In this document: positions 7,104 to 15,144 of the stretch, piece after piece | Numbering within the stretch: the first letter of the stretch is position 1 | Layout of the letters: every line of letters begins with the position of its first letter | Source: a virus | Taxonomy: Duplodnaviria > Heunggongvirae > Uroviricota > Caudoviricetes | Direction: 5' to 3' (one strand) | Length of the DNA stretch: 24,594 bases | Virus record (IMG/VR): IMGVR_UViG_2609459839_000005 | The notes under the pieces: generated by a model | Seen by the model: the letters and a program-made list of their open reading frames with translations, nothing else | What the model was told of the DNA's origin: nothing | Databases searched by the model: none | Translations under genes and position numbers: made by a program

Positions 7104-7511
7104 AATTATCTCCATTTTTACAAATGAATTTTGTCGATGCGGTGCCTGGTGCCTCCAGGTGACGTTAACCAGTTAACAATTAACGCCGGATAATCCACCC
7201 ATAACACTGATGCTTTTAACTGCGCCGCGTGCGCTTAGCCGCATTCACCGCATCACAAAATTCACTTTAAAAAGGGGCGGCAGGGCAGCTACGGAGTAGA
7301 ACTGGTGCCGCCAAAAACTAGACACAGCAATGTCGTTATTTACAACCGGAGGCGCACTCCCACCATTTAAATTTAACAGACAAGACCGACTCTTTATGGA
7401 TACCGGAAATGCGCCTTCGTATTGTGCCCGGTTTTATTTCACCACCTCCGGGCTTTGGTGGCCTCGGCTATACCCCTACAGCAAGAATATTGAATTAATC
7501 CAATAAATGGT

Positions 7512-10298: not shown

Positions 10299-10871
10299 AT
10301 GAGAGACATTGATGTAAGAAAGGCTGTGCATGCCAAGATTCTGAGAGATCATCATAAAGATCCTGACACCCTAATCATTGATGAGTTTACGATGAATCTA
10401 GGGGCTAGCAGAGCTGATATAGCAGTGATCAATGGGCTTATACATGGTTATGAGTTGAAGAGCAAGAGTGATAACTTGCTCAGATTACCAGCGCAGGTGC
10501 AACATTACTCATCAGTGATGGATAAAGTAACGTTGGTTGTCTCTGATTGCCATCTTTATGATGCTTTAAGCATAGTTCCATCATGGTGGGGGATAAAGCA
10601 AGTTACGCAAGGTGCACGGCAAGGTATCCATTTAAAAACAATTCGAACTAGCAAGTTGAATCCACAAGTGGACAAACTTTCCTTAACAATGCTTCTTTGG
10701 AAAGATGAATTGCTTTCCCTATTAAGTGATGTAGGGGAGCTACAGAATTTGAAAAATAAACCTAAACGCGTCTTATGGTCAAAACTCGCCAATAGTATGG
10801 ATGTTGGCGAGCTTCGTGAAGCTGTTCGAGTTAAACTTAAAGCCCGTAAAGAGTGGCGAGTTGCTCAATAA
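10299..10871 (+). CDS. PD-(D/E)xK-motif nuclease-like protein, 190 aa (first gene of candidate defence cassette)
   Basis: Translation has …IDEFTMNLGASRADIAVINGLIHGYELKSKSD…: Asp in a hydrophobic strand, then E-L-K about 12 residues later. AT-rich (about 35-40% GC in sampled 60-nt stretches). Weak SD, so the start is uncertain. Confidence 0.6.
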   Translation: MRDIDVRKAVHAKILRDHHKDPDTLIIDEFTMNLGASRADIAVINGLIHGYELKSKSDNLLRLPAQVQHYSSVMDKVTLVVSDCHLYDALSIVPSWWGIKQVTQGARQGIHLKTIRTSKLNPQVDKLSLTMLLWKDELLSLLSDVGELQNLKNKPKRVLWSKLANSMDVGELREAVRVKLKARKEWRVAQ

Positions 10872-11934
10872 CCTTAGTTATGTGATGGTTTTGCCCAATC
10901 CTACGCCATACCTCTGGGCTACCAAATTTATAGTTACCAGAGGGATTGGCTTTGTAGGCTTGATACTCGTTTGCATAATATTCTATGTCTCTATCTCCCG
11001 CACAGAATGTAGGCCCTGAATATTCTCGATGAGCAAGAATATCCTCACTATGTTTACCATATTGTTCATAACCAAAGCGATTAGCTACTCTTCCTCGAAA
11101 TACCCAAAAGTCATTATCTCCAGAGTATCTGACGCTGGCAGATACGCTAGGGAATCGCGTCGAAAGCCTATTAAAGTCGGGGTGCTGTACTCCATAATCA
11201 CTATAAATCACATTTCTGGCAAGTTCTTTTCTATTCATTAAACTCTGCCATAAAATCCACTCGATTCGAGGTTGAGAATATAGACCAACAGAAATATCAC
11301 TGAGATCTGTAGGAAATGAACCCCCAGAAAGAATCACTTTTCTGTATTCATTGAGGTGCGCCAGATTGTTTATCAATCCCATTGCCAAAGTATATAGTTC
11401 GCCGGAATTAAGTTTATCCTCGGTTAACTCATCTCTTAAGTCAATAATTATATCAATATTTGATAAAGGAATTCCCAGATGATTAATGTAATGCGTTATT
11501 AATTGTGGGTTAACCAGATCTAACGTGGTTAATCTCAAGCATATTTCATTCTGCATTAATTCATCAATCGCTCTTTTATAGTTAGATGGGCGAGTTGGTG
11601 AACTGACAGGAATAACTCTTATCCCCATATCTCTAACTTGATTAACCGCATTTATTATAGGGTAATGATCTTCAGGAGAAATAAAATGCTCTTCAATTAA
11701 TAATCCATCAATATAAACACCTTGCATATCTGAGCAAGATTTTGAGACTTTCTTTCCGAACTCTATAAGAGTCTCGTTATAACTCTTTAAGGCAATACCT
11801 GAATCAGGGTCAATTGGCACTGGTTCAATTTCGAGTAATGGCAAAATTTTTGATTTCTTTTCAATGGATAGCTGCGATAAAGCTGATAACTCAGAACGTT
11901 TCGCTTTCAGAATAGGAATATATGAAATTGTCAT
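10837..11934 (-). CDS. 365-aa partner protein of the cassette (possibly beta/sce7725-like family)
   Basis: Long clean AT-rich ORF (MTISYIPILKAKRSELSALSQL…) converging on the 190-aa gene, with 35 bp of 3' overlap. SD-like AAGG 7 nt ahead of the ATG. Family assignment is recollection only. Confidence 0.62.
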   Translation of the reverse strand: MTISYIPILKAKRSELSALSQLSIEKKSKILPLLEIEPVPIDPDSGIALKSYNETLIEFGKKVSKSCSDMQGVYIDGLLIEEHFISPEDHYPIINAVNQVRDMGIRVIPVSSPTRPSNYKRAIDELMQNEICLRLTTLDLVNPQLITHYINHLGIPLSNIDIIIDLRDELTEDKLNSGELYTLAMGLINNLAHLNEYRKVILSGGSFPTDLSDISVGLYSQPRIEWILWQSLMNRKELARNVIYSDYGVQHPDFNRLSTRFPSVSASVRYSGDNDFWVFRGRVANRFGYEQYGKHSEDILAHREYSGPTFCAGDRDIEYYANEYQAYKANPSGNYKFGSPEVWRRIGQNHHITKVIEQLATLYGL

Positions 11935-12286: not shown

Positions 12287-12315
12287 TTGGCATTGATCTA
12301 TTGGATAGTTAGAAT
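12287..12315 (+). promoter_or_regulatory. Sigma70-type promoter candidate for the hok-family mRNA
   Basis: TTGGCA (12287-12292), 17-bp spacer, TAGAAT (12310-12315). Predicted transcript of about 415 nt to the terminator at about 12737, typical of hok mRNAs. Confidence 0.4.
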
Positions 12316-12490
12316 TGCTGCGGGTGCTTGAGGCTATCTGCCTCAGGCATGAACACCAAAAGGCAGATAGAGAAAAGCCCCAGTTAACATTACGCGTCCT
12401 GCAAGACGTTTAACATTAATCTGAGGCCATATCTATGCGACACATAGAGATTAGCCTCTTACGGACCGAAAGGTCAAGGAGAAGCAGGCT

Positions 12491-12646
12491 ATGAAGCAGC
12501 AAAAGGCGATGCTAATCGCCCTGATCGTCATCTGTTTAACCGTCATAGTGACGGCACTGGTAACGAGGAAAGACCTCTGCGAGGTACGAATCCGAACCGG
12601 CCAGACGGAGGTCGCTGTCTTCACAGCTTACGAACCTGAGGAGTAA
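12491..12646 (+). CDS. Hok/Gef-family type I toxin (51 aa, single TM segment)
   Basis: Not in the ORF track (below 60 aa). Hand translation: MKQQKAMLIALIVICLTVIVTALVTRKDLCEVRIRTGQTEVAVFTAYEPEE, with the Hok/Gef signature LVTRKDLCEV…RTGQ…EVAVF…AYE. AAGGAG lies 8-13 nt upstream. Confidence 0.82.
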   Translation: MKQQKAMLIALIVICLTVIVTALVTRKDLCEVRIRTGQTEVAVFTAYEPEE

Positions 12647-12713
12647 GAGACCAGGCGAGGGAGAAATCCCTCGCCACCTCTCATGTGTCAGGCATCCTCA
12701 ACGCACCCGCACT

Positions 12714-12737
12714 AAACCCGCTTCGGCGGGTTTTTTG
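12714..12737 (+). terminator. Rho-independent terminator of the hok-family transcript
   Basis: AAACCCGC-ttcg-GCGGGTTTTTT: GC-rich stem, tetraloop and T-run, about 70 nt past the hok stop. Confidence 0.65.
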
Positions 12738-12921
12738 TTGCGTGCTGAATGCGCAGGGTGAAAAATAACCATATATTTGATTATATACACAACAAAAAAT
12801 AAAAGTCATTGTACCTGCACATTAAATAATCAAATATACAGCGTGAAATAAATGTTTTTCAGATTAATATTTTTGTCTCTATGTGGATATAACCGTTTGT
12901 ACTTATAAACTCGGAGGCATC

Positions 12922-14990: not shown

Positions 14991-15066
<76 letters not shown>

Positions 15067-15069
15067 TAT

Positions 15070-15144
<75 letters not shown>

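Follow-up and report, generated by a model that had tools for sequence, protein, structure and literature searches.

The window analysed here is a whole stretch of 24,594 nt of viral DNA. It carries, at 12287-12737, a short toxin gene whose upstream in-frame reading frame is closed by a stop codon. The locus raises the question of whether it is a complete and working type I toxin-antitoxin system of the hok/sok kind or a decaying one. The data given below favour, with a probability of about 0.88, a complete hok/sok cassette of the hokD/hokW subgroup in a Rac-like lambdoid prophage, its mechanism being assigned by homology. The locus itself is an already known, annotated (hokD) and very common element.

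The whole window corresponds to a Rac-like lambdoid prophage, the best match being E. coli 214-4 (96% covered, 99.1% identical), where recE and intR-type neighbours were found. The cassette is placed between the replication and nin/Q regions, with a 'beta family protein'/sce7726 pair on one side and a DUF1367-DUF1364-DUF1133 region with tRNAs on the other. The 601-nt region around the locus had matches in 4724 of 5426 complete E. coli genomes (median 2, up to 10 matching places per genome), and the matching loci are labelled in RefSeq as 'hokD: type I toxin-antitoxin system toxin HokD' or 'Hok/Gef family protein'. The alignment to annotated hok loci with their mok and sok, suggested as a check by a sequence-only reading of the window, yielded 92-99% DNA identity to hokD/hokW loci. 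In the phage collection, the cassette was matched from about 12310 to 12713-12735 with 84-96% identity in the records holding most of it; these records include 933W and VT2-Sakai, in which mokW, hokW, and sokW are annotated.

The sequence-only reading had claimed a 51-aa Hok/Gef-like ORF with a near-consensus promoter about 170 nt upstream and a strong terminator, and each of these elements was confirmed. The toxin gene and a motif within it are located as follows.

12491-12646, plus strand: hok toxin gene encoding a 51-aa protein, MKQQKAMLIALIVICLTVIVTALVTRKDLCEVRIRTGQTEVAVFTAYEPEE (ORF translation, Pfam)
12629-12632, plus strand: TACG at Tyr47, candidate TadA A-to-I editing motif, Tyr to Cys (sequence reading)

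The Pfam model HOK_GEF (PF01848) was covered completely by the toxin ORF, with an E-value of 1.2e-23 and a score of 82.9 bits (cut-off 22). The protein is 100% identical to HokD (RelF) of E. coli K-12, 92% identical to HokW of phage 933W, and 42% identical to Hok of R1. The TRK-LCE-R core conserved among Hok/Gef proteins is present as ...VTRKDLCEVRIR..., so the absence of conserved Hok residues, which the earlier reading had named as an argument against its own proposal, was not observed. The scores of the NCBIfam Hok subfamily models were under their cut-offs (48.5 against 73). At the codon of K-12 hokD equivalent to Tyr47, Tyr-to-Cys editing occurs at a low level (PMC5630033, PMC12214031). 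A second TACG is located at 12585-12588, where editing would be synonymous at Val32. The hokD gene of E. coli 214-4 (L001, 6292-6456) contains a 9-nt in-frame duplication, CTAATCGCC, resulting in ...LIALIALIV... and a 54-aa protein; this duplication is absent from the window.

The elements defining the hok transcript were identified on the same strand.

12287-12315, plus strand: hok promoter with -35 TTGGCA (12287-12292), a 17-nt spacer, and -10 TAGAAT (12310-12315) (promoter scan)
12322-12737, plus strand: predicted full-length hok mRNA of about 416 nt (5' end from the Rfam model start, 3' end from the terminator)
12714-12739, plus strand: intrinsic terminator of the hok mRNA with a stem at 12714-12733, a UUCG loop, and a T-run (terminator scan)

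In the promoter scan, the hok promoter agreed with the sigma-70 consensus in 10 of its 12 positions. The -10 box ends 6 nt before 12322, at which the match to the Rfam hok leader starts, and the hok leader has a length of 169 nt. Over the 700-nt region, the scan returned 2 hits against 1.1 +/- 1.2 expected from shuffles, showing no enrichment. The Rfam family RF01794 matched at full length on the plus strand at 12322-12493 (108.3 bits, cut-off 59, E = 4.4e-24). This family is named 'sok', but the match was assigned to the hok leader and not to the antisense RNA, because it lies on the plus strand and ends at the hok AUG. The terminator stem consists of 8 pairs, 5 of them G-C. The -10 box is kept in 933W, mEp460, and E. 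coli 214-4, and the -35 region varies with the prophage background. The similarity to phage hokW/hokD loci also starts from the -10 box, and both flanks of the cassette differ among prophage backgrounds, as does the -35 region; this variation suggests that the cassette acts as a small mobile module, which obtains its -35 box from the local context.

The structure of the predicted transcript was then compared with the hok/sok family using minimum free energy (MFE) folding and a 13-locus alignment, which gave the following elements.

12322-12350, plus strand: 5' element, pairing with fbi in the full-length RNA and forming the tac hairpin after loss of the 3' end (predicted pairing, 13-locus consensus)
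12377-12427, plus strand: long leader hairpin burying the mok Shine-Dalgarno (SD) sequence, with the Sok terminator stem-loop as its complement (MFE pair table)
12456-12481, plus strand: anti-SD/SD hairpin, CUCUU (12456-12460) with AGGAG (12477-12481), inside the hok SD AAGGAG (12476-12481) (13-locus consensus)
12696-12708, plus strand: fbi (fold-back inhibition) element, whose sequence complements the 5' end of the mRNA (predicted pairing)

The folding of the 12322-12737 transcript, another check suggested by the sequence-only reading, gave an MFE of -173.9 kcal/mol (z = -10.3 against shuffles), and both the fbi and tac alternative folds were predicted. In the predicted full-length fold, 12322-12333 pairs with 12696-12708 with a probability of at least 0.97, and both the SD and the AUG of mok are paired, as is the hok SD. 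In RNAs ending at or before 12695, the 5' end is predicted to refold to a local hairpin, which is known as tac in the R1 literature. This hairpin is a consensus structure over 13 diverse loci and includes a compensatory change of a U-A to a C-G pair, and in the great majority of related loci examined, the fbi element follows the hok stop at a distance of about 49 nt. At leader position 4, the window has U, and L003 (an R1-type plasmid locus), L116 (Photorhabdus), and L125 (Pantoea) have C. This U-to-C change is matched by an A-to-G change in fbi in L116 and L125, and by an A-to-G change of the tac partner in all three sequences, and the coupled covariation supports both alternative structures. 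Such covariation is reportedly the pattern classically described for hok mRNAs by Gultyaev, Franch and Gerdes in 1997. The consensus helix at 12377-12427 had compensatory changes at three pairs in 4-5 sequences of the 13-locus alignment. The anti-SD/SD pairs are nearly invariant in the 13 loci and are thus conserved with no covariation signal.

The reading frames upstream of hok, on which the question of function turns, are as follows.

12423-12426, plus strand: mok SD GAGG, 8 nt before the mok ATG (sequence reading)
12435-12494, plus strand: mok leader ORF, read in the -1 frame with respect to hok, with 19 codons (MRHIEISLLRTERSRRSRL) and a UGA (translation)
12452-12454, plus strand: TAG closing the hok-frame (mokW-type) upstream reading frame (translation)

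Upstream translation in the hok frame reads ...D*PLTDRKVKEKQAM, and the closure of this frame by the TAG at 12452-12454, noted in the sequence-only reading, was evident. With this TAG and the mok ATG in the -1 frame, an in-frame fusion of about 70 aa of the mokW/mokC type is absent from the window. The mok ATG (12435-12437) is, according to the alignment, homologous to the annotated mokW start of 933W. Compared with 933W, the window has a 2-nt deletion just past the mok ATG and a 1-nt insertion at GGTCAAGG, and these two indels place the mok start in the -1 frame. In 933W, mokW is a 70-aa in-frame N-terminal extension of HokW with a shared stop and 57 nt between the starts, whereas in the window the starts are 56 nt apart and mok is a separate 19-codon ORF. 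The GAGGC at the mok SD is invariant in the 13-locus alignment. The mok UGA (12492-12494) overlaps the hok AUG as AUGA; every hok starting with AUGA carries that stop in that frame. The 19-codon ORF crosses the hok SD (12476-12481). The description of mok as truncated is thus correct relative to the in-frame 70-aa mokW annotation, but not with regard to the start codon and SD, which are kept and open the 19-codon ORF in the -1 frame. It was also considered whether the term 'in-frame mok' was an error of the earlier reading, given the out-of-frame mok of R1; this was rejected, as the 933W annotation and the survey below show an in-frame majority.

In R1, toxicity is lost when the mok start codon is mutated or when mok has a stop upstream of hok, while stops past the hok start are harmless; according to the authors, mok translation is needed 'at least up to the hok SD' (PMC9841398). 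The window mok spans the hok SD and terminates on the hok AUG. This corresponds to what R1 requires, and the locus is therefore probably functional, with a mok that should still activate hok translation. The 19-codon mok is read here as a working minimal mok and a common natural allele rather than a lesion.

To place this configuration within the family, 122 hok loci were surveyed (that of the window, 4 references, 80 from IMG/VR, and 37 from GTDB genomes), with the following distribution of mok starts relative to the hok start.

94 loci: mok 57 nt upstream, in-frame fusion
16 loci: mok 56 nt upstream, short leader ORF
5 loci: mok 58 nt upstream, out of frame, overlapping hok for 55-68 codons
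7 loci: no recognisable mok start (K-12-type truncations included)

Of the 122 loci, 115 thus keep a mok ATG with its SD at a distance of 56-58 nt upstream of hok. The 56-nt class includes three Erwinia/Kalamiella loci (L133-L135) with unrelated leader sequences, which indicates that this class arose more than once. For the IMG/VR counts, the window allele was defined by a 62-nt sequence; the exact allele was found in at least 120 contigs, and as the in-frame allele also reached at least 120, no frequency ratio is derivable there. Among the IMG/VR matches listed, the window allele is surrounded by at least 24 upstream and at least 44 downstream flank classes. A 101-nt query over the mok region had matches of at least 99% in up to 778 complete E. 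coli genome records. No specific treatment of the mok frame was found in the literature searched, and a prior account of the 19-codon mok is possible; a recent Hok survey explicitly left Mok unanalysed (bioRxiv 10.1101/2025.08.07.668861).

These counts bear on the main rival explanation, by which the cassette looks intact but is silent or attenuated, the -1 frameshift of mok being an early decay step that cuts hok translation. The window allele is indeed separated by two indels from the majority in-frame configuration (94 of the 115 loci with a recognisable mok start). Among the matches listed, a full-length Hok ORF was found in 100 of 107 evaluable copies of the window allele and Hok was intact in 110 of 111 copies of the in-frame allele, that is, Hok was disrupted in 7 of 107 against 1 of 111, in samples that are non-independent. 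It is this slightly higher disruption that keeps attenuation under consideration, as an unlikely reading. The same matches, on the other hand, show the allele to be widespread over many prophage backgrounds with Hok intact in 93% of the copies listed, and the 56-nt spacing arose independently in Erwinia and Kalamiella. A recent preprint summarises that the intact chromosomal loci hokA, hokB, and hokC, tested earlier, gave no post-segregational killing (bioRxiv 10.1101/2025.08.07.668861), which would suit a silent locus; in the window, however, every other regulatory element is intact, and the 19-codon mok has the extent that R1 requires (PMC9841398). The remaining explanation, a chance ORF with promoter-like and terminator-like motifs and no hok/sok locus, finds some favour in the unenriched promoter-like hits (2 against 1.1 expected in 700 nt) but can be practically dismissed given the Pfam match, the mRNA fold, and above all the Rfam E-value of 4.4e-24 together with 92-99% nucleotide identity to thousands of annotated hokD/hokW loci, by which chance is no issue for the locus as a whole.

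The complete hok/sok cassette also calls for an antisense gene, whose position was predicted by means of 933W.

12448-12477, minus strand: predicted Sok promoter with -35 TTGACC (12477 down to 12472), an 18-nt spacer, and -10 TAATCT (12453 down to 12448) (sequence reading)
12371-12441, minus strand: predicted Sok RNA, about 71 nt long and antisense to the leader hairpin and to the SD and start of mok (933W sokW transfer)

The coordinates of Sok were obtained by transferring the sokW annotation of 933W (L004, 1563-1633, minus strand) through alignment A1. The minus-strand boxes TTGACC and TAATCT, pointed out in the sequence-only reading, are present at 12472-12477 and 12448-12453, 18 nt apart, and lie just upstream of the point corresponding to the annotated 5' end of sokW. 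The promoter scan did not report the Sok promoter, which has 8 of 12 matches to the consensus; its support accordingly comes from positional homology rather than from the consensus. In 933W, the corresponding boxes are TTGCCT and TAACCT with a 17-nt spacer. In the predicted fold of the Sok RNA (-26 kcal/mol, z = -4.2), a long hairpin lies between a 5' tail that is single-stranded and a 3' end rich in U, and the length of the RNA agrees with the 71-nt complementarity of sokW (PMC8621323). The predicted Sok gene at this locus is thus supported by homology. About 9 of the 71 Sok positions differ between the window and 933W, and these differences are clustered at the 5' recognition end.

The mechanism proposed for the window follows by homology from R1 hok/sok and hokW-sokW of Sp5; Thisted and Gerdes (1992) are said to be the source of the R1 mechanism. 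The promoter at 12287-12315 would give rise to a stable hok mRNA of about 416 nt, in which 12322-12333 would be locked to fbi at 12696-12708. With the mok SD buried in 12377-12427 and the hok SD paired, the full-length RNA is proposed to be neither translated nor bound by Sok. Slow 3' trimming would strip the terminator and fbi, upon which the 5' end would refold to the tac hairpin and the leader would open. As long as the prophage is present, the unstable Sok RNA of about 71 nt would pair with the mok initiation region, leading to a block of mok and to RNase III cleavage. After Sok decay, ribosomes would start at the mok AUG at 12435 and read 19 codons through the anti-SD/SD hairpin at 12456-12481; termination at the UGA 12492-12494 atop the hok AUG would lead to hok translation, and the 51-aa Hok peptide would damage the inner membrane. 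On these grounds, we infer that both RNAs are transcribed, that the mRNA is processed at its 3' end, that translation of mok and hok is coupled, and that Hok is toxic in this host.

The closest described relative is hokW-sokW of the Stx2 phages 933W and Sakai prophage Sp5, a cassette of the same type in a lambdoid prophage, with 91.6% nucleotide identity between 933W and the window over 404 nt. The leader structure, the fbi element, and the position of the mok ATG are common to both, whereas differences are found in the -35 region, in the flanks, and around the terminator. Experiments on the hokW-sokW locus of Sp5 showed a type I toxin-antitoxin pair, in which sokW has 71 nt; upon mitomycin C treatment, the level of sokW drops and that of HokW increases, and lysis by the prophage is thereby helped (PMC8621323). 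In the cryptic Qin prophage of K-12, hokD (relF) encodes an identical toxin, and it differs little from the window in its coding sequence and in its 3' UTR with fbi. Its site within a lambdoid prophage is comparable too, as it precedes rem, ydfU, and the Q-like ydfT. However, the homology of K-12 hokD to the window ends about 15 nt upstream of the hok ATG, and relBE replaces the promoter, leader, mok, and sok in K-12, whereas the window holds the complete cassette.

R1 hok/sok (parB) and the window share a Hok/Gef toxin, a structured leader, the fbi and tac pairings, a mok start about 57 nt upstream with translation over the hok SD, and an antisense Sok promoter overlapping mok, which in the window is predicted. 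The mok of R1 starts 58 nt upstream, with its start codon at 116-118 and that of hok at 174-176 (PMC9841398); it is read in another frame than hok, with which it shares an overlap of 70 codons. R1 is a plasmid-stabilisation locus, whereas the window locus belongs to a prophage. The enrichment of hok in prophages was reported in a survey that left its function open (bioRxiv 10.1101/2025.08.07.668861). In addition to helping lysis, prophage maintenance and phage exclusion are possible roles of the window locus.

The value of the locus lies in its annotation: the full hokD cassette (promoter, leader, mok, sok, fbi, and terminator) can be set against the truncated K-12 hokD that most work cites. 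It is a better template for the roles of prophage hok/sok in maintenance, lysis help on induction, and phage exclusion. The mok start is conserved in position but not in frame, and the length of mok varies as well, in agreement with the published view that ribosome passage over the hok SD alone matters. The current understanding of the hok/sok family is unchanged.

Sequence variation along the transcript was compared among 70 distinct E. coli-type hok mRNA alleles. The most variable stretch was 12432-12449, which includes the AUG of mok together with its codons 2-5 and is complementary to the 5' tail of the predicted Sok RNA. The mean column entropy was 0.84 at 12432-12439 and 0.45 at 12440-12449, and did not exceed 0.1 across the hok coding sequence. 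This stretch may set the specificity of Sok/hok pairing between co-resident copies. As a tentative proposal, to which we give less than an even chance, the mok frame is evolutionarily free (56, 57, or 58 nt), the 56-nt AUGA allele being a natural minimal mok that works by termination-reinitiation and avoids a Mok-Hok fusion, and 12432-12449 perhaps setting private Sok/hok specificities. If so, a genome could, thanks to such specificities, carry several hok/sok copies that do not interfere with one another. The literature searched was found to state neither the idea of a free mok frame with a minimal mok nor that of private specificities.

Several other features of the window prophage were observed. 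Directly upstream of the hok cassette, at 10299-11934, there are two convergent, overlapping ORFs. One encodes a 365-aa Beta_protein (PF14350, 3.2e-52), which matches PD-Lambda-2_C of PADLOC (1.7e-41); the other encodes a 190-aa protein matching PADLOC 'cll' (2.4e-28), annotated as 'sce7726 family' in E. coli 214-4. The Beta_protein and sce7726-type ORFs may represent a prophage-borne defence gene pair. A full-length Rfam match to RalA (223.8 bits) was found at 1557-1735 on the plus strand; RalA is the sRNA antitoxin of the RalR/RalA type I system of Rac-type prophages, making this a second RNA-antitoxin system in the window prophage. An Rfam match to the DicF sRNA (49.9 bits, cut-off 48) was detected at 7275-7326 on the minus strand, as in the Qin-type dicB operon. 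Tandem phage-borne tRNA-Thr(UGU) and tRNA-Gly(UCC) genes are located at 14991-15144 on the plus strand, downstream of the nin/Q-like region.
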